Positions 4,240-58,494 of a DNA stretch of 64,000 nt are shown here, one piece after another. The DNA lies in the NCBI GenBank assembly GCA_016713535.1, contig JADJOY010000027.1, positions 141,026 to 205,025 of the forward strand. The letters are read 5' to 3'. The translations under genes and the position numbers were made by a program. The first letter of the stretch is position 1; every line of letters starts with the position of its first letter. The notes beneath the pieces are model-generated. The model was not told the origin of the DNA, made no database searches, and saw only the letters and a list, made by a program, of their open reading frames with translations. This DNA comes from Deltaproteobacteria bacterium (GTDB lineage: Bacteria; JADJOY01).

Positions 4240-4265
4240 CGACGGGGGTTTCATCCCCCGTCGCC
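3996..4265 (+). repeat. two tandem ~147-bp units of the REP-A hairpin repeat
   Basis: GCGCCTCGTGACGCGTTCGAGCGCCGGCTCGGTGACGGAGCGCCGC...GCGCTACGAAA(n)CGTAGCGACGGGGGTTTCATCCCCCGTCGCCGG occurs twice, starting at 3999 and 4146. Confidence 0.9.
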
Positions 4266-4346
4266 GGTCTCGATCACCTCGAATGAGCGGCCCGGATGGA
4301 ACGATCCACAGTCCCTCCGTCGAGCCCGCCCCCAGCGTAGCGCCGC

Positions 4347-8140: not shown

Positions 8141-8258
<118 letters not shown>

Positions 8259-8278
8259 TGGCTGTATAGGGGCGAGCG

Positions 8279-8806
8279 TCAGCTCGCGGCCGCGACCTGC
8301 GGCGGCGACGGGGGGGGGGGGAGCGCCGCCCTCCAGCCGCGGCGTGCGGGTTCGGGAGGGCTGACGCCCTCCCCTACACCACCCTCCACGTGGTGCATGG
8401 GCGTGTCACCCGGGCTCCCCCCCCCCCGCCCCCCGGCCCCCCCCCCCCCGGCCCCCCGGCCCCCCCCCCCCGGGGGCCCGGGCGCGGCCGCGAGCGCGGG
8501 GGGGCCCCGCGCGCTGGAAATCCCAGCCCGGGTGACGTCGGCGATCTCGATGCGGAAGTACTGGTACCACTTCTCGCGGCCGAGCTTCTGGGCGAGGCGG
8601 TGGCGCTCGTCGGTGGCCCAGAGCCGCATGGTGGCGGCGTCCTGCCAGTGGATGACGGAGAGCCGCTCGCCGTCCTCGCTCTTGAAGCTCTTGAAGTCCT
8701 TGAAGCCCGGCGTGCCGCGGGCGCGCTCGATCATCTCGGCGGCCATGCTGGAGTAGTCTTCGCCGGCCTCTGAGGTGAGCCGCGACCAGAAGAGCACCAC
8801 GATCAT
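8279..8806 (-). CDS. antibiotic-biosynthesis-monooxygenase (ABM)-like protein (3' end unreliable)
   Basis: MIVVLFWSRLTSEAGEDYSSMAAEMIERARGTPGFKDFKSFKSEDGERLSVIHWQDAATMRLWATDERHRLAQKLGREKWYQYFRIEIADV is a typical ~100-aa ABM domain (8515-8806). Below about 8515 the frame runs into the poly-C tract, so the true stop is unknown. Confidence 0.7.
   Translation of the reverse strand: MIVVLFWSRLTSEAGEDYSSMAAEMIERARGTPGFKDFKSFKSEDGERLSVIHWQDAATMRLWATDERHRLAQKLGREKWYQYFRIEIADVTRAGISSARGPPALAAAPGPPGGGGRGAGGGGAGGRGGGSPGDTPMHHVEGGVGEGVSPPEPARRGWRAALPPPPSPPQVAAAS
8400..8515. repeat. G/C-only tract, C-rich on + strand
   Basis: CCCGGGCTCCCCCCCCCCCGCCCCCCGGCCCCCCCCCCCCCGG.... This is the mirror composition of 8141-8258 and lies at the 3' end of the minus-strand ABM gene. 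Confidence 0.9.
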
Positions 8807-10085: not shown

Positions 10086-10149
10086 CCTCCCCGAGCCGGC
10101 ACGCGGACCCGGAGCTCACGAAGCAACCGAACGCGACCGAGGCGCTCGC

Positions 10150-10243
10150 GGGGGGACGGAGCCCCCCGCGCTACGAGAACGACCGTAGCGACGGTCACGG
10201 CCACGGTGCGCGCCGTAGCGACGGGGGTTCCATCCCCCGTCGC
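10150..10243 (+). repeat. REP-A copy (with a ~30-nt insertion between hairpins)
   Basis: GGGGGGACGGAGCCCCCCGCGCTACGAGAACGACCGTAGCGACGG...CGTAGCGACGGGGGTTCCATCCCCCGTCGC. Confidence 0.85.
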
Positions 10244-10293
10244 GGGCTTCACGCGAACGCCATGGACGACGCAGGTCGAAAGCGCCACAGGAT

Positions 10294-13540: not shown

Positions 13541-13664
13541 TCAGCGCGGCGGCCTCGAGGTCGGTGTGTATCGCCGGGCAGGCGGCGCGCGCCCCTCCCA
13601 GGGGCTACCTGCGCACGATCCGTAGGGGCGGGGCCTGTCCCCGCCCGCAAAGCTGCCGGCCCGC

Positions 13665-14400
13665 CGGAGACGGGCGCCAGGACGCCCCGGCCTCGCATCC
13701 GGATCGGCGCCTCCTTCGGAGGAACGGCCTCCCGGCCGTCCGCTGTCGGGCGATGATGCCCGCGGCACCCGAGCAGATCGGCGCGGAGACGCCGCAGCCC
13801 CTCGCGCCCCCCTTCTCCGATCGATCGCCGACCCGCTGGAGCGCGCCCGCTTCGTCGGGCGCCAGGACGCCCCGGGCCCGCATCCGGATCGGCACCGCCT
13901 TCGGAGGGACGGCCTCCCGGCCGTCCAGTTCGGGCGATGATGCCCACAGCACCCGAGCAAATTGGCGCGGAGACGCCGCGGCCCCTCGCGGCACCCCGTT
14001 CTCCGACCGAGCGCCGATCCGCTGGAGCGCGCCCGCTCCGTCGGGCGCCCCGGACGCCTCAGGCTCGCATCCGGATCGGCACCGCCTTCGGAGGGACGGC
14101 CTCCCGGCCGTCCAGTTCGGGCGATGATGCCCACAGCACCCGAGCAAATTGGCGCGGAGACCGCGGCCCTCGCGCCCCTTCCGATCCGCCAACCCACTGG
14201 AGCGCGCCGCTTCGTCGGGCGCCAGGCCCCCGGCCTCAACGGCCCCGGCCGTCCAGTTCGGATGAGCCCACAGCACCAGCATTGGCGCGGACCGGCCTCG
14301 CGGCACCCGCTCTCCGACCAGCGCGATCCCTGGAGCGCGCCCGGGCCCCGGACGCCTCAGGCTCGCATCCGGCCGCGCGGTCCCTCGCGGCACCCGTCAG
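13665..14400. repeat. tandem repeat, ~185-bp unit, about 4 copies
   Basis: GGGCGCCAGGACGCC recurs at 13672, 13858, 14043 and 14217. Each unit contains the hairpin GGACGGCC-tccc-GGCCGTCC. Later copies are progressively degenerate. Confidence 0.85.
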
Positions 14401-14671: not shown

Positions 14672-14678
14672 GTTAGAC
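14672..14678 (+). other. lone GTTAGAC box (possible R' core of an eroded attC or attI) 38 nt upstream of the first cassette ORF
   Basis: It matches GTTRRRY exactly, but no convincing partner arm is seen upstream. Confidence 0.25.
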
Positions 14679-14715
14679 CGCCTGTGACCGTTAAAGTATT
14701 GGAGGCATCGAATCA

Positions 14716-16397
14716 ATGAGACAAGTTCATCGCGCAATAGTAGTGATGGTGTTCTTCCTTGCCGGAGCGGTGGGAGCGCCCCTCTCGATGGCGCAGGAGC
14801 AGCCCCAGGGCATCACTGTGTTCGTGGCGAAGAAGATCATCACGATGGATCCGGGCTGGCCAACGGCAACCGCAGTGGCCGTCCGCGACGGCAGGATTCT
14901 GTCTGTCGGCTCGCTCGAGGACCTGAAGCCGTGGCTCGAATCGGCTCCACATGAAATCGACCGCAGGTTCGCGGACAAGATCCTGACGCCGGGCATGATC
15001 GAGCCGCACGGTCATCCGGTGCTCGGAGGCACCTCGCTGACGCGACCCCTCCTGAGCTACCTCCCGCTGCCGAGCCCCTACGGAGCGCCGTTTCCGGGCA
15101 TAAAGACCGCGACCGAAGCCGCGGCCAAGTTGAAGGAATACGTTGCGCAGGCGAAGTCGCCCGACGAGACCGTGCTCGCCTGGGGCTATGACGTCATCGC
15201 CATGGGCGGCAAGCACCTCGACAAGACGGTCCTCGACAAGGTCTCTAAATCACCAAGGAGCATCTCAAGACCAACGGCGTGATGGCCGACGCCGACGGCG
15301 AGCCCAACGGTCAGTTCCTCGGTACGACGGCCGCGCAGTTGGTCCTGGCGGAGCCGCTCACGCAGCTGTTCGCGCCCGAGGTCGCGCTGAAGAACGTGAA
15401 TTTCCTCATGGACCTGAGTCGCCAGAACGGAATCACCACGACCTCGGAACTGGCGTTCGGGGCCATCAACCTTCCGGTCGAGCAAAAGGTCTTCGAGGCG
15501 TATTTCAATGATCCAGCCAGCCCGATGCGGTGTGTCGTGGTGGCCGACGCAACCACCATTACCGCCGAAAAGGGCGAAGGGGCGATCGCGTTCGTGCAGG
15601 GCCTGGCCAGGCGCAACACCGACAAGCTCATGTTCAACGGCGTCAAGTTCTTCTCTGACGATTCCTTCCTGAGCCTCGGCATGGTCATGGAGAACCCCGG
15701 GTACACGGACGGCCGGAAGGGGATCTTCATCCTGCCGCCGGACAAGATGGTCGAAACCTGGATGCCGTGGTGGAAAGCGGGTTTCCAGATCCACGTGCAC
15801 ACCAACGGCAACGGCGGCAACGAGGCCACGTTGCGCGCCCTGGAGGGCCTGATGCGGGCGCAGCCGCGCTTCGGGCACCGCTTCACGTTCACGCACTACG
15901 GCATGTCTACGCCGGAGCAGACCACGCGTATTGCCGCGCTTGGCGGCATCACCAGTGTCAATCCCTACTACCTGCACAGCCGGGCGGAGTTCAACGCCCC
16001 CTACGTGGGCGTCGACCGCGCGTACAGCGCCGCGCGGCTGAAGACGCTCGTCGATGCCGGCGTGCCGACTTCGCTGCATACGGATACGCCAGTCGCGCCA
16101 CCGTTCCCGCTCGAAGAGATGTGGATCGCGGTCAACCGCTTCGGGCTTTCGGGCAAGGTGCTCGCACCCGAAGAACGGATCAGTGTCCACCAGGCGCTTC
16201 GCATGGTCACGATCGATGCAGCCTATACGCTCGGCGTCGAGGACAAGGTCGGCAGCATCGCTGCGGGCAAGTTCGCCGACTTCGCCGTGCTGGAGAATGA
16301 CCCGTACGCGGTGCCCAAGGAGAACATCCGGGACATCAAGGTATGGGGGACCGTGGTGAGCGGCGTCGTTTTCCCTGCCTCTGAGATCAGACCCTGA
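14716..16397 (+). pseudogene. amidohydrolase-family (YtcJ-like, metal-dependent) gene with internal deletion and frame change near 15245
   Basis: ORFs 14716..15282 and 15279..16397 are two parts of one amidohydrolase (signal peptide, EPHGHP, HVHTNGNG, C-terminal GKFADFAVL). The join ...VLDKVSKSP / ITKEHLKTNGV... lacks about 20-25 residues normally present between these blocks, and the frame changes. Confidence 0.8.
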
Positions 16398-16408
16398 GCG
16401 AGAGAACG

Positions 16409-16469
16409 GTCTAACAATCGGTTGCAGCGGACGGCGCTGGCGCGCCGCCGCTGAACCGAGACGTTATGC
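16409..16469 (+). other. attC-like recombination site (cassette boundary)
   Basis: R'' GTCTAAC; L'' TCGGTTgCAGCGGaCGGCGC pairs with L' GCGCCGCCGCTGAACCGA except for two unpaired bases (G16424, A16431); R' GTTATGC. It begins 12 nt after the amidohydrolase stop. Confidence 0.75.
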
Positions 16470-16529
16470 GATCCCCGGTTTTCGCCAGGTGGTCCCGATG
16501 AGCATCGCGCGGGTGTTCCAACTGGGCTG

Positions 16530-17285
16530 TTGTACGCCTGGTGCCGCCACCAGGCAGTCGATAGCTGGCTCGGGTTCCTCGCGTCCGTCGGACTACTTAT
16601 CGTCTGGTTCTGGCATGAGCGCGGAACGGCCAGGGGGCCGTTCGGGCAACCCGTTCTCGCCGAACCAGTGACCAACGCGGCGATCCTGATCGTCCTCGTG
16701 GTTCTCAGCCTCGCCACGATCGCTACCGCCTTCCTTCAACCGTCCGTCTGGTTTCAGCGCCGCCGCACTCATCAGTCGCGAAAGGGATGCACCATGTCCT
16801 TGTTCAAGAAGAAGCTCGACGTGGTTCAGATCGGCACGGCACTGCTGGCGTTCGCTCAGGAGCCGGATCCGGGGAGTCCCGCCTCGCGATCTGCTTCCCT
16901 CTCGGCATCCAGCCCTCGACGAATCGCGAACGAGATGCTGTTCCTCCGCATCTTTGCTGTCGACTTCGGCGTTGCGATGGCCGTAGACGGGCCAAAAAAA
17001 GGACAGATCCTGGACATCTTTTACGAGCACGTTCGACGCATCGGGGCACTACTGGGGCTCCCGCCCAGTTCGAGGCGGACCTCCGCACCCGATCATTCGC
17101 GCACCGTAGCGGTGCGCGACACCGGAGGTGGCGGCGCAATGCTCCAGGCTATCGGCAGCACATTCGTCACATCGTGCGACGGTGCATGCGACGACTCATT
17201 GTCGGCAGCCATGGACGCAGGCATGACCTTCGGCATGGTGCAAAGATCCGTCAAAGATTTCCTTGGCTCCATCCGTATCGCATGA
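16530..17285 (+). CDS. hypothetical protein (cassette ORF); alternative start at 16794
   Basis: 251-aa ORF whose first 88 aa contain two TM-like segments. A shorter version starts at MSLFKKKLDVV (16794). No family recognised. Lower GC than the flanks. Confidence 0.5.
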   Translation: MYAWCRHQAVDSWLGFLASVGLLIVWFWHERGTARGPFGQPVLAEPVTNAAILIVLVVLSLATIATAFLQPSVWFQRRRTHQSRKGCTMSLFKKKLDVVQIGTALLAFAQEPDPGSPASRSASLSASSPRRIANEMLFLRIFAVDFGVAMAVDGPKKGQILDIFYEHVRRIGALLGLPPSSRRTSAPDHSRTVAVRDTGGGGAMLQAIGSTFVTSCDGACDDSLSAAMDAGMTFGMVQRSVKDFLGSIRIA

Positions 17286-17337
17286 TGGCAGAGATAGCGG
17301 GCCGGGGGTGTACGGTCCCGCGCTTGGCTGATTGGTC

Positions 17338-17429
17338 GCACAACTATGCGCTGCAGCAGACGGCACCCCGGGGGCCGTGGGCATTCAGCCCACGGTAGTC
17401 TGGGGCCGCTGCTGAGCGCGGCGTTAGGC
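17338..17429 (+). other. attC-like recombination site (long form)
   Basis: R'' GCACAAC; GCGCTgCAGCAGaCGGC (17348-17364) pairs with GCCGCTGCTGAGCGC (17405-17419), leaving the same g and a unpaired 6 nt apart. A 40-nt variable centre is itself palindromic (CCGTGGG...CCCACGG). R' is the canonical GTTAGGC (17423-17429). Confidence 0.7.
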
Positions 17430-17460
17430 CACTTCAACCAACGCTCCAAAGGAGACCCAA

Positions 17461-17728
17461 ATGGCAGACACACCCCCGCTCTTGGTCAACGGCTTCGTGA
17501 AGTCCAAGCTCGTCCCTTTTCGCTTTGAGAAGGACGCCTCCGCTACGCCAGAAGCGTTCAAGGCTCGTGCTCGCTTTTTCGACCTTCTGGAGTTGGAGCG
17601 CCTAAAGAAGCTCGACGAGCCATCCCTTGTTTCCAGCTTGCACGGCGAGATCGCGCGTGTCTTGTTCACGATCCCCTACTGGGTCTTCTTCCCGGAGTCC
17701 TTTCCGGGAGAAGCAGCACTAATCCAGA
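17461..17728 (+). pseudogene. 5' segment of the IS-interrupted pentein-fold enzyme gene
   Basis: MADTPPLLVNGFVKSK...FPGEAALIQ, preceded by an AAGGAG ribosome-binding site. The frame continues exactly into 20430.. once the IS and one target-duplication copy are removed. Confidence 0.8.
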
Positions 17729-17825
17729 GTATCCGTCCGGTAGTCCCATGGGGCCGGTGCGAAGGGGCCGCAGCTCGCGTGATCCGCGGCGGGCAGGTCC
17801 GTCGGTTGTAGAGGTCGGGTACGGC

Positions 17826-19466
17826 TTAGTCGGCGGCGACTGATGAAGCTTGGGGGTGAGCGCTGGCCCAGCGATCGGGCAGGAGCTCGGCCATGCGGTG
17901 AGCGGGCCATCCCACGGCGAGCTTCTCGATCACGTCCGTGAGGTACGGCAGGGGTGCCACGCCGTGCTGCACGCAAGTCCGCATCAAGCTGTAGAGCCGC
18001 GCCGAGCGTCGGGCTGCGTCGTGCGACCCGGCAAAGAGATAGTTTCGACGGCCCAGTGCGAGGTCTCGGATCTGGCGCTCGCAGAGGTTGTTGTCGAGTG
18101 ACAGCCGTCCGTCCTCGACGAAACGCGTGAGCGCCGTCCAGTGGTTCAAGAAGTAGCTCGCCGCCTGCGCCAACGCTGAGCTCGGCGGCTCGTCGCGCAC
18201 CGTCGCGACCAGCCAGCGTTGGAGCTTCTCGAGTGCTGGAAACGATCGTTCCTGGCGTTGCACCGCCCGCGCTTCGGGCGTGAGCTCCTTCAAGTCGGCG
18301 AGCTCCTCGAGCTTGTATAGCCGCCGGATCAGGAGCAGCGGATACGCCACCCGGCAGTCCGTGTCCTTGAGGTCGACGAGCCGCCGCCGCGCGTGCGCCA
18401 TGCAGCCGACCTCGATCGCTTCGGCGACGCGCCCGTTGTAGACGCGGTCGAACACGTTGGCGGCATCGGCCTGCACATACCCTTTCCGCCCCGTGAGGAA
18501 GAGCCACGGCCCGTCCTCGCCCTTGCCGGTCTCGGCGTACTCGAAGAGCACGTCGCGATCGTCCCCCACGTAGCACCACATCGTGCCGCGCTGGATGTGG
18601 TCGGGGGTCTCCGGTGCGAGCACCTTGAGACCGGATCCATCGGTCCGCACGACGTACGCGGCGCGCACCCGGTCGGCCAGCACCTCGATGACGGGCGCCA
18701 CCAGATCGCCGACTCCCGCGATCCAGTCCGCGAGCGTCGACACGGGCACCGTCACGCCGCTGCGCGCGAACATGCGGTGCTGGCGGTGAACGGGCCCGTG
18801 GTCGAGGAATTTGGTCACCGTCACGTACGCCAGCAGCGAAGGAGCGGCGGTGCAGCCGAACGGCTTCACCGGGCCGGGTGCGGTGTGGACGCCGAGCTTG
18901 CAGCGGCCACAGGCGTACTTACCGAGCCGCCACTCGTGCTCCACGAAGTGCCCGGGGACGTACTCGAGCACGCGCGAGGCGTCGGAGCCGATCCGTCGCT
19001 CGGGCTGACCGCAACGCGGGCACGTCCGCGCCCCGGGCTCGAGCTCGACGCGATGCTCGCAGCGCTCGACCTTTCGCCGGTCGACGCTCGGCGCGCGCTT
19101 GCGGTGAATGGCCGGCCGGCTCTCGTCGAGCTCCTTCTCGAGCTCGGCGTCCGCCTCGGCATCGGCCCGCACCTGCTCGGGCTTCGGCTCGGCTGGGGTG
19201 TCCTGGGCCGTGAGCTGCTCGAGCAAGAGCGCGAGCTGCCCGGGGTCGACCTTTTCGCTTCGCTTGCCCGTGCGCTCGCTACGGAGCTTGTGGATGAGCA
19301 GCGAGAGCTCGCGATTCTTGTCGAGCACCGCACCCAGCGCCGCGACGAACAGATCGAACGCCTCGTCGGTGCGGCCTTCGGCCACCAGCGCTTGCGCGTT
19401 GGTGCGCACGTCCTCTGGCGAGAGGACGTTTCGCGAAGCGGACGAGGGCGCCGAGGACGACGGCAT
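17826..19466 (-). CDS. IS66-family transposase TnpC
   Basis: 546 aa with an N-terminal coiled-coil/leucine-zipper region, the zinc-finger-like CPRCG...CGRC and a DDE domain typical of IS66 transposases. Confidence 0.92.
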   Translation of the reverse strand: MPSSSAPSSASRNVLSPEDVRTNAQALVAEGRTDEAFDLFVAALGAVLDKNRELSLLIHKLRSERTGKRSEKVDPGQLALLLEQLTAQDTPAEPKPEQVRADAEADAELEKELDESRPAIHRKRAPSVDRRKVERCEHRVELEPGARTCPRCGQPERRIGSDASRVLEYVPGHFVEHEWRLGKYACGRCKLGVHTAPGPVKPFGCTAAPSLLAYVTVTKFLDHGPVHRQHRMFARSGVTVPVSTLADWIAGVGDLVAPVIEVLADRVRAAYVVRTDGSGLKVLAPETPDHIQRGTMWCYVGDDRDVLFEYAETGKGEDGPWLFLTGRKGYVQADAANVFDRVYNGRVAEAIEVGCMAHARRRLVDLKDTDCRVAYPLLLIRRLYKLEELADLKELTPEARAVQRQERSFPALEKLQRWLVATVRDEPPSSALAQAASYFLNHWTALTRFVEDGRLSLDNNLCERQIRDLALGRRNYLFAGSHDAARRSARLYSLMRTCVQHGVAPLPYLTDVIEKLAVGWPAHRMAELLPDRWASAHPQASSVAAD

Positions 19467-19568
19467 CGGTGCGTAGCCGGAAGGAATGTTGCTCGCGGAC
19501 GGATATGCAGCACACGTGTTTCGCGAACAAGAGGTCGGACGAACGAAATCGGAAAAGATTCACGAAGC

Positions 19569-19958
19569 TCACCCGAACGTCGCGGTGGAGCGTGGGATCG
19601 GCTTCGCAGCGCGATACCAACGTCGCTGCCGTGTGGCTCGTCGCAGATCGATCCCTTCGAGAATCATCGTGAGCTCGGCCGCGTCGACCTCGATGTGCCG
19701 AGCGCCGATCAGTGGCGCCTTGGGGAGCGTGAACGTCCCGCGCTCGAGACGCTTGTAGACGAGCAGGTATCCCGTGCGATCCCACACGAGGATTTTGATC
19801 CGGTTTCGCCGACGGTTGAGCCAGCAGAACAGATGCCCGGAGAGTGGATCCTGACGGATCACCTCGCGCGTCGCGGCGGCCAAGCCGTCGAAGCCGCGGC
19901 GTAGATCGATCGGCTCGGACGCGATGTAGACCTGAACGGCCGACGGGAGCGTCAGCAC
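19569..19958 (-). CDS. IS66 Orf2-like accessory protein TnpB
   Basis: VLTLPSAVQVYIASEPIDLRRGFDGLAAATREVIRQDPLSGHLFCWLNRRRNRIKILVWDRTGY... matches the IS66 Orf2 family. The GTG start overlaps the tnpA stop. Confidence 0.88.
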   Translation of the reverse strand: MLTLPSAVQVYIASEPIDLRRGFDGLAAATREVIRQDPLSGHLFCWLNRRRNRIKILVWDRTGYLLVYKRLERGTFTLPKAPLIGARHIEVDAAELTMILEGIDLRRATRQRRWYRAAKPIPRSTATFG

Positions 19959-20353
19959 GCACTCGGCCCCGCGACCACGTCCAAGACCTGGCGCAGCTCG
20001 GCCGGGTCGACTCCCGGTGGCACGCGGATGCGCTCGCCACCGACCAGAACGATCTCGATGATCGGCGCATCGAAGGCCGTCGTCGGCGCATCGCAGCGAT
20101 CCACGACGCGCACCGGGTGGAACTGAACCGCGCGCGGGTTCAGCGGCGCATCGAGATCCTTCGCCCAACGCAGGATTCGCTTCGGATCGAGCTGGTAGCG
20201 GCGAGCGAATGCCGCGGCGCTCGCTTCGCTCTCACGCCACGCCTCCACAACTCGCCGCGCATCGGCCTCACGCCAGTACCTGCGCCGAGCGATCTGCCAA
20301 ACCTCGTCGTTCCTGTCTGTCCGCATCGCGCGTCTCCTCTCCTCGATCCTCAC
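19952..20353 (-). CDS. IS66-family accessory protein TnpA (Orf1)
   Basis: Small helix-turn-helix-like protein (...EADARRVVEAWRESEASAAAFARRYQLDPKRILRWAK...). It is first in the three-gene IS66 arrangement. An alternative ATG lies at 20326. Confidence 0.8.
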   Translation of the reverse strand: MRIEERRRAMRTDRNDEVWQIARRRYWREADARRVVEAWRESEASAAAFARRYQLDPKRILRWAKDLDAPLNPRAVQFHPVRVVDRCDAPTTAFDAPIIEIVLVGGERIRVPPGVDPAELRQVLDVVAGPSAC

Positions 20354-20429
20354 CGCGATCGAGGAGGCAGAGCTTCACGCGAGCCGCCGCACGACGGAAC
20401 ATGGAACTACCGGACGGATACAATCCAGA

Positions 20430-21499
20430 AGTACGCAAACGCGTTTCGACACATTCTCTCCACGCTCCCAGATGCGTGCCGGGTCATCCTCTTCACGCAC
20501 GAGGTGTCGGCGGACAAGGCTCGGAGCTGGCTCAATGAGTTCGGTCTCACCGCCCGCACCGAGCTTGTGACCGCTCCGAACGCCATGAAGTTCACCGTCT
20601 GGGCAGAGGATGCGTACTGCATTTGCAAAGACGTCGCAGACGGGGAGACGTATTTTGTAGAACCAGCGAGCTTCAATCGCGCCGAAGATGCGTACATCGC
20701 CGATCGAGTTGCACCCAAGACCGATCTGGAGTCAACTCAGGTTCAACTGTACTTTCAGGGCGGAAACGTATTGATCGGGGATGATTTCTGGTTCATCGGA
20801 GCAGACTACCCTGCGCATTCCCTCGAACTCGGTTTCGTCGTACCGCAACCAGGGGAAACAGCGGCCCAGGCCATTGCGCGAGTCTACGGTTCGTTCATGG
20901 AGCGCAATCGTCGGCTCATCACTGTCGGGTCTCGAGTTCCCGTTCCCGCGATGCAGAAGCATCCGATTATGGTGAATGGCGAGTTGTGGCATGAGGTGCT
21001 CTACTTCGGCAATGCACAAGGAACCGTTCAGCCACTGTTTCATATCGACATGTTCGTAAGTCTCGTCGGGCGAGACGCCAATGGAACCTACACGGTGCTC
21101 GTAGGCAGCCCGGAGCTGGCTGCCAACGTGCTGGGGGAGCAGTTGCCAGAAGGCGCTATGCAAGACGTTTTCGACGACATTGCCGCCGGTCTGTCAGCTC
21201 TGGGGTTCAACGTCGTTCGTAATCCACTGCCAATGGCTTATGACGATGATGACTCTGAGAAGGTGCGGTACTGGTACTTTGCCACGGGCAACAACGTCTT
21301 GACGCAGGACAACCCAAAGAAGGTGTGGATTCCCACCTACGGCCACGGACACTGGGCCAAGTTTGCCGCGACCGATGCGGAAAACAGGCGGATTTGGGAA
21401 TCGCTCGGGTATGTCGTTGAGTTGTTGCCGGACTTTCATCCGTTTGCGGCCAACCTTGGTGCCGCGCATTGCATCAAGAAGTACCTTGCGCGCGCCTGA
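20430..21499 (+). pseudogene. 3' segment of the IS-interrupted pentein-fold (guanidino-group-modifying enzyme superfamily) gene
   Basis: KYANAFRHILSTL... contains TVWAEDAY, FQGGNVLIGDD, LFHIDMFVS and the C-terminal GAAHCIKKY. These echo the W-x-x-D, GG, H-x-D and G-x-HC-[IM] catalytic blocks of agmatine/arginine deiminase-type enzymes. Confidence 0.7.
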
Positions 21500-21517
21500 A
21501 CGGGCCGTGAGAAAGTG

Positions 21518-21577
21518 GCCTAACAACCGGTTGCAGCGGACGGCGCTCCGCGCCGCCGCTGAACCGGAGCGTTCGCT
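21518..21577 (+). other. attC-like recombination site (same family as 16409-16469)
   Basis: R'' GCCTAAC; CCGGTTgCAGCGGaCGGCGC pairs with GCGCCGCCGCTGAACCGG with the same two unpaired bases (G21533, A21540); R' GTTCGCT. The next ORF ATG follows 4 nt later. Confidence 0.75.
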
Positions 21578-21580
21578 CAC

Positions 21581-22108
21581 ATGAGACCTCCGTCTGATAT
21601 CGAGCGCCGCCGTGTTATCGACGGCATCGAGCAAGCATTCGGCAACGTCCGGCGCGGCGAAGGGACGACCCTTCATGAGACCGAGGTGCTCGACGACTAC
21701 GGCTCAGACCAAGAGTTAGCGGCGGCGCGCGCTCTCGACATCGACACTCGCTGGCAAGACGTAGCTGACGAGCTAATTGCGGAACACTCGGGTGCCCTGT
21801 GCTTTGTCGATCCTGCCGGATTTCGTTACTACATTCCGGCGTACATGCGATGGACTGTGAAGTATTTCGACGCAGGGACTGGTTCGGAATCTGCGCTTCA
21901 CACCGTCTTCGTGTTGACACCAAATCGCCGCTTCCAGGAGGACGGCGCAAAGCTCGAGCGATTTCGCGTGTTCAGCCGCGACGAAAGCCGTGTGATCTGC
22001 GAGTTCCTTCGCTTAATGGCAGAGCACGCAGACTTCTCGACGCAGGTGTTGGCGACAAATGCGCTCGAAGATTATTGGGGTCGTTTCTGCCAAGATCCGA
22101 GCGAATGA
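21581..22108 (+). CDS. hypothetical cytoplasmic protein (cassette ORF)
   Basis: 175-aa ORF (MRPPSDIERRRVIDGIEQAFGNVRRGEGTTLHETEVLDDYG...) with clean coding look and lower GC. I cannot assign a family with confidence. Confidence 0.6.
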   Translation: MRPPSDIERRRVIDGIEQAFGNVRRGEGTTLHETEVLDDYGSDQELAAARALDIDTRWQDVADELIAEHSGALCFVDPAGFRYYIPAYMRWTVKYFDAGTGSESALHTVFVLTPNRRFQEDGAKLERFRVFSRDESRVICEFLRLMAEHADFSTQVLATNALEDYWGRFCQDPSE

Positions 22109-22124
22109 GGCGTTGCGCTTGAAG

Positions 22125-22191
22125 GCACGCGCGCTGGCACGTGGTCTGACGGTCTAGTAGTCCAAGGCCGCTGCTGAGCTTTTCGTTCGGC
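22125..22191 (+). other. eroded attC-like site (3' half conserved only)
   Basis: GGCCGCTGCTGAGC-ttttc-GTTCGGC (22166-22191) closely matches the L'/R' half of the 17338-17429 site. The expected 5' arm is disrupted (GCGCTGgcacgtggtctgACGGTC). Confidence 0.4.
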
Positions 22192-22439
22192 GTACAACGC
22201 TGCAATGTCGCACTGTAGATCCGATCACCAAGTTCGATCCGCTCGCGATATTTTTCGCTACCTCGTACACCCTCGGGTTTCTCGCCCATTGCTGGGTATA
22301 CCGGCATCTGATCCGAAGCACGCCGAGCACGGCGGTGCAGCGGACGAACCGAGGGGTGTCCACTCGTGAGGCCGGCTAGCTCAACAGCCCGCCGTTGCAC
22401 GTCACGGTACGCGACAAGTCGACAGGAGGAGACCAGCCG

Positions 22440-22901
22440 ATGAACAAGGTGACACCGTTCCTGATGTTCGATGACCAGCTCGAAGCTGCGATCGCGTTCT
22501 ATACCGCCACTTTCCCCGACTCCGAGATCAGGACGGTTGCCCGTGCTGGCAAGGACGGCCCGATCACTTCTGCCGAGTTCGTCGTCGGTGGTCAGGTCTT
22601 CATGGGGTACAACGGCGGTTCATACTTCAAGTTCTCCGAGGGATTTTCGCTCTTCGTCGACTGCAAGGATCAGAGGGAGGTCGACGAATACTGGGACAAG
22701 TTCGTCAGCGCTGGCGCAACCCCATCGCAATGCGGATGGATCACCGATCCATTTGGCATCACCTGGCAGATCGTGCCGAGGCGTTTCATGGAGCTCATCG
22801 CCGACGAGAACCCGAAGAAGGTACAAGCCGTCATGAAAGCCATGATGACGATGGTGAAGCTCGACGTGGCGGTGCTGGAGCACGCCTATGATGCTGCCTA
22901 G
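22440..22901 (+). CDS. VOC-family protein (PhnB-like, 3-demethylubiquinone-9 3-methyltransferase-domain type)
   Basis: MNKVTPFLMFDDQLEAAIAFYTATFPDSEI...QCGWITDPFGITWQIVP...MMTMVKLDVAVLEHAY matches this widespread ~150-aa family end to end. An AGGAGGA ribosome-binding site lies 10 nt upstream. Confidence 0.85.
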   Translation: MNKVTPFLMFDDQLEAAIAFYTATFPDSEIRTVARAGKDGPITSAEFVVGGQVFMGYNGGSYFKFSEGFSLFVDCKDQREVDEYWDKFVSAGATPSQCGWITDPFGITWQIVPRRFMELIADENPKKVQAVMKAMMTMVKLDVAVLEHAYDAA

Positions 22902-23540
22902 CCGACGTTCGCCGCTCGAGTGAGGCACCCCATCAATCGTGCGTGCGGGGACTCGGACCGCGACGAGTGCAGTCCCGAAGCCAGGCGCATCGCCCCCGCG
23001 CTGGCAGCCTGCGGCTCTGTCAGCGAGGTGGCCGATCTCGTTCACCGGATCTTCGTGGCCATGTTCGATTCGCGCACCGCAGGCCCGCCCGAGCGCTATG
23101 CGCGGATTACAGCCAGCATCTGGGAGGAGATACTGGCCACCGGGCGCCCCAGCGAAATCGACACGCCCGCCGACGGCGACACCCCGCCGCTGACCTCTGC
23201 GTTCCGAGTCCGGCTGCGAGCCGGGAGGATTGGCAATAATGCCCCCCACCCTCCCCTCCGATCCTCGAACGGCGGTGCGAAGGGCCCGCATCCGGATGTG
23301 GCTCGACGAGGCCGCCTTCTGGGGAGTCTTGATCCTCATTCAGATTCCCGGGTACGAGAAGGTTGGCTGGTCGATCGTCGGGCTCTGGTTCGTATCACTG
23401 GCGGTGCGGAGCATCCCGTCGGGTGGGCTGATCCTGCGAACGACGTTGTGACCGGGGCGGCGGGGGAGTCGACCCTCGCGCTGCGCGCGGCGCGGCTCGC
23501 TGGAGGGGTGGGCTCGAGTGGAACGGCCCGAGATCGCGCC

Positions 23541-24017
23541 ATGACGAGCCGGTCGGTCCAGGTACGCCGGGCCACCTCGGACGACGTCGAGGCGCTCCTC
23601 GCGTTGATGCGGGACTTCTACGCCGAGTCCGGCTTCGCTCTCGATCCCGCATCGGCCGGGGCGGCGCTTCGATCGTTGCTCGCCAGCCCTTCGCTCGGAT
23701 GCATCTGGCTCGCGTTCGCGGACGACGTGGCGGTCGGACACGCGGTGCTCACGGTCCGCTTCACGATGGAGCACGAAGGGCTGAGCGGCTACGTCGACGA
23801 TCTCTACGTTCGACCCACGCACCGTCGTCAGGGCATCGCTCGAAGCCTCCTCGGCGAGTTGCTCGCCGAGTGCAGAGCGAGGCAATGCAACGCGCTTCAT
23901 GTCGAGGTCGGCGGATCGAACTCGGCGGCTCTCGCCCTCTACGCCGAGCTCGGTCTGCGCGCGTCCACCGATGGCCGCATCCTCGCGAGCGGACCGGTGG
24001 CCGGGGTCGGCGTCTGA
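23541..24017 (+). CDS. GNAT-family N-acetyltransferase
   Basis: MTSRSVQVRRATSDDVEALLALMRDFY... carries the acetyl-CoA motif VRPTHRRQGIARSLL. Only the C-terminal 158 aa of the listed 365-aa ORF are supported. Confidence 0.8.
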   Translation: MTSRSVQVRRATSDDVEALLALMRDFYAESGFALDPASAGAALRSLLASPSLGCIWLAFADDVAVGHAVLTVRFTMEHEGLSGYVDDLYVRPTHRRQGIARSLLGELLAECRARQCNALHVEVGGSNSAALALYAELGLRASTDGRILASGPVAGVGV

Positions 24018-24109
24018 GCGGATGCTCCGCCCGCAACCGACCGGCCGTGTTCCACGGTGGGCGAACGGGTTCAGCGATCCACGGGCTCGGCGATGCCGGC
24101 GCACGCGCG

Positions 24110-24594
24110 TCTCGCCGGGCACGCGACGCGTGCCCCTCCACGGCCTCTGGAGGCGCATGCTTCGTCGTGCGCCAGCGTCGAAAGCGCCACGCCCCGGCGC
24201 GACGGAGCGCGCCCCCAGACCAGGAATCGAGCGGCTGGAGGCGCCGCGGTCGCTCGCGGTGCGCGCCCGATCCCTGGGTCTACCGAGGGACCGTTGCGCC
24301 TCCAGCGGCCCGCCGGGAGGCGGGCCCTCCGGAGGACGGGGAGTGAACGCGGTCGCTGCGAGGATCCGCGCCGTCGCGGACGCAGGAGGCGGTGCGTGTC
24401 GCCGGGCACGCGACGCGTGCCCCTCCCGGTTTCTGGAGGCGCACGGTTCGTCGTGCGCCAAGCGTCGAAAGCGCCAACGCCCCGGTGCGACGGAGAGCCT
24501 GTGAAGAAATCGAGCGAGAGCGAAGCGCCGCGGGGGGCGGAGCCCCCGCGCTACGAACGCCTCGTAGCGACGGGGGTTCCATCCCCCGTCGCCG
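24110..24594 (+). repeat. modular hairpin-repeat cluster (two ~98-bp module-C copies, one GGCCCGCC hairpin, one REP-A core)
   Basis: TCGCCGGGCACGCGACGCGTGCCCCTCC...GCGTCGAAAGCGCCA.CGCCCCGG.GCGACGGAG occurs at 24110-24207 and 24398-24495. CGGCCCGCCGGGAGGCGGGCCCTCCGG lies at about 24307-24332. The REP-A core is at 24531-24594. Confidence 0.85.
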
Positions 24595-24710
24595 GCTTCG
24601 CACGGTTTCCGTGAGCGACCCAGATCGAAAGATTCACAGCCTCGGAGTTGCGCCCTCCAGACCAGCGACTCGAGCCGCTGTAGGCGCCGCGATCGCTCGC
24701 CCGCGCGGCC

Positions 24711-27862: not shown

Positions 27863-29198
27863 ATGCCGACCGCGCTGATCGTCGATGACGACACGACCTC
27901 ACGCGAATCGCTGAGCGAATGGGTGGGCGAGCAGGGCTTCGCGACCCATCAGGCCGACGACCTGCCGAGCGGTCGCGAGATCATCGCCAGCGATCGGATC
28001 GACCTCGCCCTCCTCGACCTCGACCTGCCCTCGGGCAGCGGCCTCGAGCTGCTCCCCGATCTCGAGAAGCAACCGTCGGTCGACGTCATCTTCGTCACCG
28101 GCTACTCGACGGTCGACTCGGCGGTGGAGGCGTTCCGCAGCGGCGCCGTCGACTACCTCACCAAGCCCGTCGACCTGAAGCGCCTGAAGAAGCTGCTCGA
28201 TCGCGCCCGCCGCACCGCCGAGCTCAACGCCGAGATCGGCAACCTCCGCCAGGAGCTGCGCGGCCTGGGACGGTTCGTGAAGCTGATCGGCACCTCGCCG
28301 CCGATGCAGCACGTCTACGACCTCATCGAGCGCGTCGCCCCCACCGACGCCACCGTGCTCGTGACCGGCGAGACCGGCACCGGCAAAGAGGTGGTCGCGC
28401 AGACCATTCACGCGCTGAGCCGGCGCGCGCGCTCGCCGTTCGTGCCGATCAACTGCGGCGCGGTCGCGCCGACGCTCATCGAGTCCGAGCTCTTTCGGCC
28501 ACGAGCGCGGCAGCTTCACGGGCGCCGAGCGCGCCCACAAAGGCGTGTTCGAACGCGCGACCGGCGGCACGCTCTTCCTCGACGAGATCACCGAGATGCC
28601 GCTCGAGCTACAGGTGAAGCTCCTGCGCACGCTCGAGATGGGCGCCGTGCGACGCGTCGGCGGCGACGGCGAGATCGAGATCGACGTGCGCGTGGTCGCC
28701 GCCACCAACGTCGACCCACAGAAGGCGGTGGCGCAGGGAAAGCTGCGCGAGGACCTCCTCTACCGGCTGCTGATCTTCCCGATCCACCTGCCGCCGCTGC
28801 GCGAGCGTCGCGGCGACATCCCGCTCCTCGCGCAGCACGTGGTCAACACGCTCAACGCCAAGGGCGAGACCAACAAGCACGTCTCGCCGGCGGCCTTCGA
28901 CCGCCTGCAGGCCTACACCTGGCCCGGCAACGTGCGCCAGCTCAAGCACGTCCTCGAGCGCGCGTACATCCTCGCCCGCGACGAGATCGGGGTGACCTGC
29001 ATCCAGCTCGGTGACAGCCCACCGCCGCGCACCGGATCGGCCTCGGTGGAGGTCGGGTCGTCGATCGCCGAGATGGAGAAGCGGCTGATCCTCGCGACCC
29101 TCGAGCACACCGCCGGCGACAAGAAACAGACCGCCAAGCTGCTCGGCATCAGCCTCAAGACGCTCTACAACCGCCTCAACGCCTACGCGCACCACTGA
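27863..29198 (+). CDS. sigma-54-dependent response regulator (REC-AAA+-Fis HTH), apparent frameshift at 28493-28495
   Basis: The REC domain starts [10 protein letters not shown]. The AAA+ region has GETGTGKE and [15 protein letters not shown]. The C-terminal HTH is [19 protein letters not shown]. The two ORFs join if ctc ttt cgg is read as ctc ttc ggc (one extra T). Confidence 0.88.
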
Positions 29199-29204
29199 GC
29201 GGCC

Positions 29205-29480
29205 CCGCCCCCTCGGAGGGACGGCCTTTACGCGGGAGAGACCGCGACGCCCCCTCGGAGGGATGGCCTCCTGGCCGTCCGACCACGCTGCGGCCCGCCG
29301 GGAGGCGGTCCCTCCGAAACCGGGAGCGACCGCGACGTACCTTCTGCGTCCGACACGGGGCGAGATCGCGACGCTCCTCGGAGGGACGGCCTCCGGCCGT
29401 CCGCCCGGGCTGCGGCCCGCCGGGAGGCGGGCCCTCCGAGGCGGCGATCCGCGCGCACGCGGGCTCGCACCCCTTCCATT
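29205..29480. repeat. hairpin-repeat cluster
   Basis: Repeated CTCGGAGGGACGGCCTCC.GGCCGTCC and GCTGCGGCCCGCCGGGAGGCGG.CCCTCCGA modules, the latter at about 29290 and 29415. Confidence 0.8.
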
Positions 29481-30565: not shown

Positions 30566-32690
30566 ATGGAAACATTCGGTCCGGCACCGCACGAGTCGGT
30601 GCTGCTGTTGCTGGTGCGCGTCGCCCTCCTGCTCGCGTCCGCACGCTGCCTCGGCGAGCTCGCCGGGCGGCTCGGGCAGCCCGCGGTGGTGGGGGAGCTC
30701 GCCGCCGGCGTGCTGCTCGGCCCCTCGTTCCTGGGACGCGCGCCCGGGCTGGGTGCCGTGCTGCTCCCGCACGAGGCGATCGACGGCCCGCTGCTCGAGG
30801 TGATCTCGCTCCTCGGCGCGCTCTTCCTGCTCGTCCTGACCGGCATCGAGACCGACCTGCGGCTGATGCGGCGCCACGCGCGCACCGCGTTCGGCGTGTC
30901 GTTCGGCGGCGTCGTGGTGTGCTTCTCGCTCGGCCTCCTCCTCGGCCACGCGATGCCCGACGAGCTCCTCGCCGATCCCGCGCGTCGCACCACCTTCATG
31001 CTGTTCCTCGCCACCGCGCTCTCGATCTCCGCGATCCCCGTGATCGCCAAGGTGCTGCTCGACCTCGGCCTGTTCCGCCGCGACGTCGGCCAGACCATCC
31101 TCGCCGCGGGGATGTCCGACGACTCGACCGGCTGGATCCTGCTGTCGCTCGTCGCCGGGCTCGCGAGCGGCCAGGCGCTCACGGTGGCCGGTGTCGCGCT
31201 GCAGGTCGGCAAGGTGCTCGGCTTCCTCGCGATCTCGGCGACCGTGGGCGTGTGGCTGGTGCGCCGGCTCCTCGACCTGGCGCTCGATCGCCTCACCGGC
31301 CGCTATCAGCTCGTGACCGTGGTGGTGGTGCTGATGCTGGCGTGGGGCGCCGCGTCGCAGGCGCTCGGCCTCGAGGCGGCGCTCGGTGCCTTCGTGGTGG
31401 GCGTGATCCTCGGCCACCTGCCGCGCTTGCCGGACCACGTGCAGCAGTCGCTCGAGGTGGTGAGCCTCGGCATCTTCTCGCCGGTCTTCTTCGCGGTCGC
31501 GGGGCTCAAGGTGGACGTGCTCGCGCTCGCCGACCCGCGCGTGCTCGGGTGGTCGGCGGCGGTGCTCGCGGTGGCGTCGCTCGGCAAGGTCGGGGGCACC
31601 TACCTGGGCGCGCGCCTCATCGGCCGCAAGGACCACTGGACCGCGCTTCGCCTTCGGCGCCGGCCTCAACGCGCGCGGCGCGATGGAGATCATCGTCGCC
31701 ACCATCGGGCTCTCGCTCGGGATCCTGAGCCGAGACGTGTTCTCGATGATCGTCATCATGGCGATCGCCACGTCGGTGCTCGCGCCACCCGCGCTGCGCT
31801 GGGTCCTCGGCCACGTGAAGCCCGACGCCGAGGAGAACGAGCGGCTCGAGCGCGAGGCGGCGGTCGCGGGCTCGTTCCCGTCCACGATCCGGCGCGTGCT
31901 GCTACCCGTGCGTCCACGCCAGGACGGAGGCGAGATCCTGGAGATCGAGCGCCACGTCCTCGAGCGCCTCGCCAGCGAGCACGACGTCACCGCGACCTTG
32001 CTCACCGTGGCCACCGCGGCCGAGCGCGAGAGCGCCGAGCAGATGCTCGGCGGCACTCGCGAGCGGCTCGCGCTGCCGAACCTCACCACCAAGGTCGTCG
32101 AGGCCGACGCCCCCGGCGAGGCGGTGCTCGCCGAGGCGCAGAAGCACTACGACCTGGTCATCCTCGGCGCGACCCAGCGCGGCGCGGGCGAGCGGCTCTT
32201 CTCGCCGCTGGTCGACGAGCTGGTGCGCTACTCGCCGTGCGCGACGCTGGTCGTGCAGGGAGGCGCCGAGCGCGCCTCGTGGAAGCCGCGCCGCATCCTG
32301 GTGCCGACCAACGGCGGCAGCGCGTCGCGGCGCGCGGCCGAGCTCGCGTTCGCGCTCATGGAGGGCGTGGGCGGACGGGTCACGGTGCTGCACGTGTTGC
32401 GACCGACGGTTCGCGGCGTGCGGACCTGGCGCGCGCGCGAGACCGCGAGCGAGATCGTCGAGGACCTGCGCACCCTCGGCGACGCGCTCGGCATCCGCGT
32501 GGCGGCGGAGGTGCGCGTGGGCCACGCACCCGAGCAGGTGATCGTGGAGGAGGCGCGCGCAGGGAGGACCGACGTGGTGGTGCTCGGCACCGACCTCCGG
32601 CCAGGCTCGAGCCGCCTCCACTTCGGGCCGCGGGTCGAGCGCATCCTCGAGGGCGCGCCGTGCCCGGTGATGGTGTTGAACGTGCCGTGA
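30566..32690 (+). CDS. CPA2-type cation:proton antiporter fused to tandem universal-stress-protein domains (apparent frameshift at 31647-31648)
   Basis: The Kef/NapA-like TM domain ends ...GARLIGRKDHWTAL / AFGAGLNARGAMEIIVATIGL... and the join needs one T fewer. The C-terminal ~280 aa form two USP-like modules (...VILGATQRG...LVV, ...VVVLGTDLRP...VMVL). Confidence 0.85.
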
Positions 32691-50296: not shown

Positions 50297-50304
50297 GCGC
50301 GCTC

Positions 50305-50370
50305 GCGGGGGGACGGAGCCCCCCGCGCTACGAAAACCATCGTAGCGACGGGGGTTCCATCCCCCGTCGC
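50305..50370 (+). repeat. REP-A copy (best-preserved)
   Basis: GGGGGGACGGAGCCCCCCGCGCTACGAAAACCATCGTAGCGACGGGGGTTCCATCCCCCGTCGCC forms three consecutive hairpins and lies between convergent genes. Confidence 0.9.
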
Positions 50371-50495
50371 CTGGGCCGGCGCGAGCCGACTCAGGGGTGG
50401 GACCCGCCGGGATTCACTCCCGGCGGGCGGGAGGCTGGAACAGCCCCTCGAAAAACTCCGCCGACTGCTGGGTGAAGACTCGCCTTCGCGAGTGT

Positions 50496-54904: not shown

Positions 54905-55170
54905 ACGCCCACGCCCCGGCCCGCCGGAGGCGGGCCCTCCAGACCGGGTGCGGATCGCGGCGACGCCTGGACGTACGGCGATCGAAGTCGCGGCGGTGGG
55001 ACGGTCTACGCGGACGACGTTGCTGGAGCGCGGCCGCTCCGTCGGCCGTCGGCGACCGTCTGGGTGTGTAGGGGACGGCGTGAGCCCTCCCGCTGCCGGC
55101 GCCCCGGCCCGCCGGAGGCGGGCCCTCCAGACCGGGGTGGGCGGCTGGAGCGCGGCCGCTCCGGCGGCGC
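54905..55170. repeat. hairpin-repeat cluster
   Basis: CCCCGGCCCGCCGGAGGCGGGCCCTCCAGACCGG occurs at about 54917 and 55103. CTGGAGCGCGGCCGCTCCG occurs at about 55022 and 55145; the same module recurs at about 58262. Confidence 0.85.
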
Positions 55171-55177
55171 CGCGATA

Positions 55178-58215: not shown

Positions 58216-58494
58216 GGATTCGATCGTGAGTCGGATCGCGACGCGCGGTGCAGCGAGCGGCTCGAGCGCGGCCGCTCCGTCGGCCGCCCGCGATCGGGTG
58301 GATGCGCACACGGACGGTAGCGCCGTTGCTCGTAGGGGCGGCCGCGAGGCCGCCCGCGATCGGAAACGGTCGGCCCAGCTCGTGTCCGATCATCGGCGGG
58401 CTCACGCCCGCCGCTACACGGGCGGTGCGAGTGTTCGCTCGCGCCCGACGGAGCGGGTGCGCTCCACGAACCGCGATCGGCGGCGGTGCCGAGG

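Follow-up and report, generated by a model that had tools for sequence, protein, structure and literature searches.

A probable integron cassette array without an adjacent integrase gene in the chromosome of an uncultured Polyangiales-like myxobacterium

The 64,000-nucleotide stretch of DNA analysed here (contig JADJOY010000027.1 of the deltaproteobacterial assembly GCA_016713535.1; called the window below, with positions counted from its first letter) contains, from 14672 to about 22900, an island of low GC content made up of gene-sized units. In each unit a promoterless open reading frame (ORF) is followed by an attC site, the type of recombination site that closes an integron gene cassette. 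All cassette ORFs lie on the plus strand and three attC sites, here named A, B and C, are intact. A first-pass annotation, made from the letters of the sequence, had proposed that the island is an integron-style array without an integrase, and we followed up this proposal computationally. The following features were found.

14672-14678, plus strand: left cassette boundary, core GTTAGAC, with the crossover point G/TT between 14672 and 14673
14673-16463, plus strand: cassette 1, 1791 nt, with an amidohydrolase ORF (14716-16397) that has a signal-peptide-like N-terminus
16409-16469, plus strand: attC site A, 61 nt, with R'' GTCTAAC, L'' GGTT-g-CAG, a 4-nt loop, L' CTGAACC and R' GTTATGC
16464-17423, plus strand: cassette 2, 960 nt, with an ORF at 16668-17285 (205 aa, GTG start)
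17338-17429, plus strand: attC site B, 92 nt, long-loop type, with R'' GCACAAC, R' GTTAGGC and a 40-nt variable centre that has a hairpin of its own
17424-21571, plus strand: cassette 3, 4148 nt (1447 nt without the insertion sequence), with a split ORF at 17461-17728 and 20430-21499 (445 aa)
17729-20421, minus strand: insertion sequence (IS) of the IS66 family, 2693 nt, with tnpA (19952-20353), tnpB (19569-19952) and the transposase gene (17826-19466)
21518-21577, plus strand: attC site C, 60 nt, with R'' GCCTAAC, the stem of site A, a 3-nt loop and R' GTTCGCT
21572-22185, plus strand: cassette 4, 614 nt, with an ORF at 21581-22108 (175 aa; Pfam DUF6714, 4.2e-30)
22109-22191, plus strand: eroded attC, of which only the 3' half (22157-22191) is left, ending in R' GTTCGGC
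22186-22354, plus strand: ORF-less remnant of 169 nt, ending in a collapsed attC (22334-22354) in which GGTGCAGCGGACG and AACCGAGG are joined and the centre is deleted
22440-22901, plus strand: last low-GC ORF, 462 nt, 153 aa, 3-dmu-9_3-mt / glyoxalase-fold protein (Pfam, 8.7e-38)

Three complete attC sites, at 16409, 17338 and 21518, had been named in the first-pass annotation, and the sequences that it quoted are all present where it placed them. Coordinates, folds, scores (77 bits for each of the short sites A and C, 50 bits for B) and the alignment with the attC of aadA1 agree with this call. attC sites have a conserved structure and vary in their centre and in their length, from roughly 57 to 141 nt, a range into which the lengths of 61, 92 and 60 nt fall. 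Each of the three sites is intergenic and lies 3' of a plus-strand ORF. The 18-mer GGTTGCAGCGGACGGCGC is found exactly at 16420 and 21529, with no other copy in the window at up to two mismatches, and site B has the same L boxes and bulges as site A. Folded as single-stranded DNA, the bottom strand of each site gives one hairpin, in which a 4-5 bp outer stem and a short open spacer lead to a long inner stem. This inner stem bears two single-base bulges, 6 nt apart, in the 3' arm (the '' side). They correspond to the two unpaired bases per site that had been noticed in the letters, and they occupy the same columns as in the attC of aadA1. The folding energies are -24.2 kcal/mol for site A (z = -5.9), -24.4 kcal/mol for site C (z = -4.8) and -30.4 kcal/mol for site B (z = -4.7), and in each case none of 200 shuffled sequences folded as well.

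As a surrogate for the IntegronFinder model we used two covariance models of the attC family, R1 and the broader R2, the latter made from environmental sites only, and ran both on the window with filters off. The short sites A and C score about 76-78 bits with either model (E about 1e-21 for site A), values that are partly circular, as discussed below. Site B is matched over its full length at 39 bits by R1 and at 50.5 bits (E = 1.7e-13) by R2, its 40-nt centre being modelled as an insertion. The two models find these three sites only in the 64 kb, where the best unrelated match reaches 14-17 bits (128 kb, both strands). When read on the reverse strand, the three sites score 14-27 bits; with 22-27 bits in reverse against 77 forward, the element is asymmetric. 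No T-run follows the attC stems, and Rfam gave no match anywhere in the window.

In an integron array a cassette starts within the R' box before it, whose last six bases are part of that cassette, and the 5' end of a cassette should be complementary to its own R''. We found this signature in the island. The pairs GTTAGAC/GTCTAAC, GTTATGC/GCACAAC and GTTAGGC/GCCTAAC are complementary at 7/7, 6/7 and 7/7 positions, each being the best of five candidate partners, whereas the R'' and R' boxes as they now stand in the array pair more poorly (5, 5 and 4). On cutting at G/TT the cassettes measure 1791, 960, 4148 and 614 nt, the third one 1447 nt when the IS and the duplication are taken out; cassette-sized units in a single orientation had been noted. 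The lone GTTAGAC at 14672 is not significant when taken alone. It can be credited as the left boundary of a cassette, however, because it is exactly complementary to the R'' GTCTAAC at 16409, which belongs to the attC at the other end of this cassette, and its reading as a trace of the array stands. Upstream of 14672 no hairpin was obtained on folding.

The GC content is about 65% up to this boundary and drops there to 45%; a stretch of 60 nt beginning at 14680 has 45% GC. The cassettes, from 14.7 to about 22.9 kb, have 56-63% GC against 71-74% in the flanks, as the low GC already seen by eye had suggested. The GC content at third codon positions (GC3) is 0.65-0.86 in the ORFs of the island and 0.93-0.94 in the neighbouring core genes. 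By both measures the composition of the array is foreign. GC climbs again beyond about 22.9 kb, and the right end of the array is not defined; it lies at about 22.9-23.5 kb, with no recognisable attC after the last low-GC ORF. A metagenome contig of 1 kb (L133), which was the only return of a single metagenome scan, is colinear with window 22359-23372. Between the array and the host repeats lies a gene for a GNAT acetyltransferase (23541-24017) of intermediate composition (GC3 0.83), with no attC near it, which may be an old cassette or a host gene.

To the left, the DNA before 14672 is host repeat DNA that follows the conserved PmbA gene. Synteny with relatives extends from window 2500 to the stop codon of PmbA at 13552 and ends there, and the relatives, with a PmbA that is 81% identical, carry other genes past PmbA and have no island at this place. 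The array is therefore chromosomal and sits at a variable spot. The first impression of a myxobacteria-like host was borne out, as the best named relatives of PmbA are MAG (metagenome-assembled genome) proteins of Myxococcales/Polyangiales with about 70% identity, followed by Minicystis and Polyangium with about 60%. The host of the array is an uncultured Polyangiales-like myxobacterium of wastewater.

The same attC family was found in many other genomes. We searched species-representative genomes with a pattern taken from the stems, TGCAGCRGACGGC-N(6-36)-GCCGCYGCTGA, which does not contain the R boxes. It matched at least 119 loci from many phyla, among them Acidobacteriota, Planctomycetota, Nitrospirota, Gemmatimonadota, Beta-/Gammaproteobacteria, Chloroflexota, Cyanobacteria, Actinomycetota and Myxococcota. 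Nearly all matches have an R''-like ...AAC about 7 nt upstream and an R'-like GTT... about 8 nt downstream; the strict consensus RYYYAAC is present in 52, and GTTRRRY in 38, of 127 distinct sites. The pattern leaves four L-box pairs free, and these alternate between CGGT/ACCG and AGCA/TGCT; three of the four show 42-50 double changes each (103 sites). Pairing in the family alignment extends to 86.7% of the cells and drops to 27-54% if the partners are shifted by 1-3 columns, and the C-G pair and two A-T pairs of the R box are kept in 67-86 of the 103 sites.

Moreover, members of the family occur beside integron integrase genes. With IntI1 as the query, tblastn returned homologues that align over about 310 residues with 49-72% identity in about ten loci, and partial homologues in about seven others, an IntI homologue lying within 8 kb in about 17 of the 119 loci. 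In our model searches, attC arrays on a single strand begin 0.7-1.5 kb from the IntI genes. Four of the intI-linked loci are labelled Haliangiales, Myxococcales, Polyangia or "delta proteobacterium" and belong to Myxococcota MAGs. In three Myxococcota MAG loci the intI gene beside arrays of the same family looks degraded, as listed here.

L106, 6903-7436: intI of which only the C-terminal 120 residues are left
L107, 4969-6179: intI split over two frames
L029, 7345-7998: intI with an in-frame stop near codon 25

These three loci, a small sample to which MAG errors could contribute, hint that loss or decay of the integrase is frequent in this clade of Myxococcota. The array of the window resembles the sedentary chromosomal integrons of environmental bacteria, such as those in loci L029, L056, L063/L088 and L077, in its attC family, in the size range of its cassettes, in their single orientation and in their genes, most of which have no known function or are of the kinds toxin-antitoxin, GNAT or glyoxalase. 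In sedentary integrons intI adjoins the first cassette, and the attC sites are often numerous and homogeneous, whereas the array has no intI, three intact sites of two types and visible decay. The cassette proteins of the window do not recur in the 119 integron loci, except for one weak amidohydrolase match.

The attC of aadA1, located on plasmid R100 between aadA1 and qacEdelta1 and downstream of intI1, served as a calibration. R2 finds this site at 57 bits (E = 1e-16), end to end and with no indels, and finds nothing else in the 5-kb locus. Sites A and C can be superimposed on it column by column: the bulges coincide, the differences in the stems are compensated, and 39 of the 60 columns are invariant across these three sequences. 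As the first-pass annotation had stated, site A starts with GTCTAACAAT like the aadA1 element, which was confirmed in R100. The aadA1 site, which belongs to the class 1 integron In2 (R100/Tn21), agrees with sites A and C in length (60-61 nt) and in the succession of its elements (R'', L'', stem, loop, L' and R'). The stems differ (AAGCCG/CGGCTT against CAGCGG/CCGCTG) by compensated changes, and the first bulged base of the top strand is G in the window sites and C in aadA1. In contrast to In2, the array has no resistance gene and no mobile class 1 platform.

No integrase had been seen on either side of the array, and our searches agree. Using tblastn with IntI1 and XerC, we found no recombinase or fragment of one in the 64-kb window (best E = 0.06). 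A profile of IntI1 and nine homologues, run with filters off against the 753 six-frame ORFs of the window, gave a best E of 1.4. attI cannot be recognised by sequence. A promoter scan of 13.5-24.75 kb returned no sigma-70-like promoter, and with no intI or fragment in the 64 kb the island is not a complete integron. Sites A and B lie 869 nt apart and are thus clustered attC sites on the same strand, as in a CALIN (cluster of attC sites that lacks integron-integrases). It is only the 2.7-kb IS66 element that puts sites B and C as far apart as 4089 nt, slightly more than the default clustering distance of 4 kb, so that an automatic run might return a two-site CALIN and a single site. With the CALIN class (PMC4889954) the array shares two or more attC sites on a single strand, cassettes whose functions are unknown or not related to resistance, and no intI or intI pseudogene within 10 kb. 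It also shares the small size (three intact sites) and the association with an IS, and it differs in nothing essential. Overall, we consider it very likely that 14672 to about 22900 is a chromosomal integron cassette array without an adjacent integrase gene, and hence a CALIN.

We infer that the array arose through integrase recombination and that it is now driven by nothing in cis. When single-stranded, an attC bottom strand would fold to a hairpin, whose bulged bases, together with the R and L boxes, would be the features recognised by an integron integrase. The enzyme would cut between G and TT of the R' box, recombination of attC with attC would release the intervening cassette as a circle, and the entry point of a cassette would be attI, a further attC or a secondary site. 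Given an integrase from another source, excision could affect cassette 2 and, together with its IS66, cassette 3. To the left of cassette 1 there is only a bare core, and the DUF6714, ORF-less and glyoxalase-fold units are locked together through the decay of their attC sites.

Several points weigh against this assignment. The search for an integrase took in 14.6 kb on the left of the array and 41 kb on its right, so that "integrase-less" refers to this 64 kb only. R1 and R2 were built from sites picked by a pattern derived from the window, which makes the scores of sites A and C partly circular. The outer boxes had been said to fit the consensus RYYYAAC/GTTRRRY; AAC and GTT are indeed invariant, and the fit of the remainder is only loose, with 0-2 deviations in each box. 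Furthermore, sites A and C show partial pairing in the spacer that separates the R and L boxes, where aadA1 has an open one. Two other contigs, L130 (88% identity) and L131 (75%), carry homologues of the cassette 3 protein that are not flanked by an attC of the family; this protein family is therefore not confined to cassettes. Finally, contigs with a variant array, described below, could come from another organism and not from a sister strain. The R boxes, the covariation of the L boxes, the cross-check with aadA1 and the intI neighbourhoods are independent of the search pattern.

The array decays at its distal end, and IS66 disrupts cassette 3. The first-pass annotation had read the two distal sites as eroded attC, and this holds in part. 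The stretch 22157-22191 shares 77% identity with the 3' half of site B, and 22334-22354 matches two separated pieces of the family consensus. However, neither folds: the eroded attC at 22109-22191 gives no hairpin (z = +1.15), and the collapsed one has no attC-like fold and, at 9.5 bits, scores at noise level. They are relics at best. A stretch of 78 nt with the attC remnant (22112-22189) is present in the window and absent from three of the variant contigs (L120, L121 and L123; L120:3148-3152), and in the variant contigs the DUF6714 gene and the glyoxalase-fold gene are fused even more tightly. The ORF-less remnant is old, since it is present in the variant contigs too.

We dropped a frameshift in cassette 1 as proof of decay. 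Core genes of the window are frame-split as well (a sigma-54 activator gene at 27863-29198 and a Na+/H+ exchanger gene at 30566-32690), and an Illumina contig of the same locus (L134, corresponding to 16367-17356) differs from the window by two small indels in 993 nt. For these two reasons the window is probably a long-read assembly with residual indel errors, in which apparent pseudogenes need caution, and the frameshift may be an assembly error.

The cassettes encode proteins with unrelated annotations. The product of cassette 1 matches Pfam Amidohydro_3 at 7.6e-47 on its second frame. Its one frameshift is near 15246-15250, within an AAA run, and with one base restored the product of 560 aa aligns unbroken to profile positions 8-470 of 472. 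The cassette 2 protein has no Pfam, NCBIfam or PADLOC match, and among 5.8 billion proteins it matches only itself and a 92% copy. This copy is encoded on L134, the 993-nt wastewater contig, which is 99.7% identical to window 16367-17356. Neither PADLOC nor NCBIfam has a family for the four proteins scanned (cassettes 2-4 and the glyoxalase-fold ORF). Exact-protein look-ups returned nothing for the glyoxalase-fold ORF, for PmbA and for a short version of the cassette 2 ORF.

An IS had been thought to interrupt one cassette, and IS66 does so in cassette 3. It is flanked by an 8-nt target duplication, AATCCAGA, at 17721-17728 and 20422-20429, and has terminal inverted repeats of 22 nt that are 95% complementary. 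Its proteins match DDE_Tnp_IS66 (2.4e-69) and TnpB_IS66 (4.9e-33) in Pfam, and transpos_IS66 (6.8e-97) and an IS66 TnpA in NCBIfam. Removal of the IS and one copy of the duplication restores a frame of 1338 nt. This reconstruction is valid because full-length homologues of 445 aa exist, with up to 90% identity at 100% coverage. The homologues are scattered over cyanobacteria, an Enterobacter plasmid, Actinomycetota and others. The family is covered by no model of Pfam, NCBIfam or PADLOC, and a sequence search of the PDB was empty. An AlphaFold2 model of the protein (pLDDT 93.6) is matched in Foldseek by agmatine and peptidyl-arginine deiminases at E of about 1e-13, and H294-x-D296 and H436-C437 are invariant. 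These structural matches and motifs suggest that the protein is probably a deiminase-like enzyme with the pentein fold, the fold of guanidine-modifying enzymes.

Natural variants of the array were found in metagenomes. Five contigs (L120-L124), four of them from the wastewater project PRJEB8087, encode a DUF6714 protein identical to that of the window. In L120-L123 this gene is followed by the glyoxalase-fold gene, as in the window, but in all five contigs a different gene stands in front of it.

L120, 209-2539: variant upstream cassette, encoding a 776-aa AAA_13/SMC-like protein of the PADLOC candidate phage-defence family PDC-S06 (E = 8e-295)

The attC at the end of this variant cassette belongs to the same family and has a compensated L box (AGCA/TGCT against CGGT/ACCG). 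Identity between the window and the variants begins at GAGC-GTTCGCT, that is, at the attC core (G/TT), while the upstream cassette and the body of the attC differ. Over the last 205 nt that they have in common, the window and the variant contigs show 100% identity. One of the same samples yielded a core-gene contig (L125) with 99.94% identity to the window, from which it follows that the strain of the window lives in that wastewater community. The variant contigs fit a sister strain with a different array, although this is not proven.

With regard to the origin of the array, loss of intI and insertion at a secondary site are both possible. That the array never had an integrase of its own, being seeded when a cassette inserted at a secondary site of the genome (attC x attG) and grown by attC x attC insertions, is a serious possibility that falls short of being probable. 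The left end is the bare GTTAGAC, with no hairpin, attI-like repeats or remnant of intI upstream, and it lies in a repeat-filled intergenic region right after a conserved core gene. Insertion of cassettes into genomic sites has been shown experimentally and was proposed as the source of small CALINs (preprint 10.1101/2022.09.11.507474). However, attI is not conserved between integron classes, so that an attI upstream is possible, and a deletion or rearrangement could have removed intI, the locus being a break point of synteny. On the right, where a terminal attC fused to a genomic TT would be expected, the end has decayed.

The array may instead be a detached part of a working integron, with an intact intI elsewhere in the genome that shuffles its cassettes in trans, after separation of intI by a rearrangement or as part of a second integron. 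We regard this as conceivable but doubtful. About half of the CALINs lie in replicons that also encode IntI (PMC4889954), the three attC sites are structurally intact, and near-identical contigs of a single wastewater plant differ in the cassettes that they carry, the change falling at the attC core. Against this stand the absence of intI from the 64 kb, the degraded intI genes beside arrays of the same family in the three Myxococcota MAG loci, and the chance that the variant contigs come from another species. The IS insertion and the two eroded attC sites likewise argue for relaxed selection on mobility. A still more far-reaching proposal, that the array is a live cassette reservoir in which co-occurring strains of one Polyangiales species in a single wastewater community carry different cassettes before DUF6714, one variant having the PDC-S06 gene, and an integrase in trans does the reshuffling, appears rather unlikely to us. 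If it were true, an integrase elsewhere in the genome or from incoming DNA would still reshuffle an array that has no integrase. The host species in this proposal is a Polyangiales of the predatory type.

It is most improbable that the palindromes are repetitive extragenic palindromic (REP) elements or bacterial interspersed mosaic elements (BIME) of the host, or transcription terminators, with no relation to integrons: like such elements the hairpins are short, GC-rich, imperfect, intergenic and just 3' of ORFs in a host that does carry several dispersed repeat families, but they number three in 64 kb, on one strand and in one low-GC island, and they are asymmetric, have no T-run after their stems and are near-unchanged across many phyla, where they adjoin intI genes. 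REP-like scatter, which the first-pass annotation had named as a contrary outcome, was not seen in the 64 kb, where the only copies are the three intergenic ones on the plus strand. Unlike REP and BIME palindromes, the sites are not dispersed and not specific to the host, they share one orientation, and they have core boxes and, elsewhere, integrase neighbours. The dispersed repeats of the host are different sequences found at many intergenic places, the four terminator-like matches in the scan of 13.5-24.75 kb are unrelated to the attC sites, and neither view explains the cassette-specific complementarity of the R boxes.

Dispersed GC-rich repeats of the host, unrelated to attC, flank the island at 13541-14400 and 24018-24700, and a repeat unit of 187 nt is present in about three copies just left of the array. 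We considered whether the flanking repeats (13.5-14.4 and 24.0-24.7 kb, partly inverted) are the ends of a larger mobile element and rejected this, as pieces of them recur at many intergenic places. Such pieces are also found at 4035-4267, 10120-10250, 29245-29444, 50299-50371, 54909-55171 and 58254-58483. Elsewhere in the window, 3539-3982 and 8143-8472 are long, nearly pure G/C tracts rich in homopolymers (84% GC over 3001-4000), which could reflect either genuine low-complexity DNA or an artefact of the assembly. At 58499-59213, within a long intergenic gap, a unit of 101 nt is repeated in seven tandem copies with 95% identity.

The integron cassette array described here is a new example and not a new phenomenon, as CALINs are well described. 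The first-pass annotation had overstated the novelty in suggesting that integron arrays are not a described feature of genomes of this kind. CALINs are abundant, with 279 in the first survey (PMC4889954) and 2961 in 21,105 genomes in a later one (preprint 10.1101/2022.09.11.507474). Ghaly et al. (PMC9668308) reported attC sites of sequenced integrons in Myxococcota, and an integron integrase was described in a Myxococcota MAG from sludge (PMC12772301), while IntegronFinder found no cassettes in newly sequenced myxobacterial isolates (PMC13616975). Integrons are thus hardly described in cultured Myxococcota and present in MAGs, and the locus adds a well-resolved cassette array for Polyangiales. 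It leaves current understanding unchanged, and its chief use is in annotating the genome. It also points to two uncharacterised cassette proteins, one of a pentein-fold, deiminase-like family that has no Pfam model and one found in this lineage only. With an IS insertion, attC erosion and cassette fusion side by side, the locus is a small natural experiment on the decay, and possibly the turnover, of an array. Moreover, one type of attC, colinear with the clinical aadA1 attC, circulates near-unchanged across phyla in soil, freshwater and sludge, which fits the view that environmental cassette pools are widely shared.

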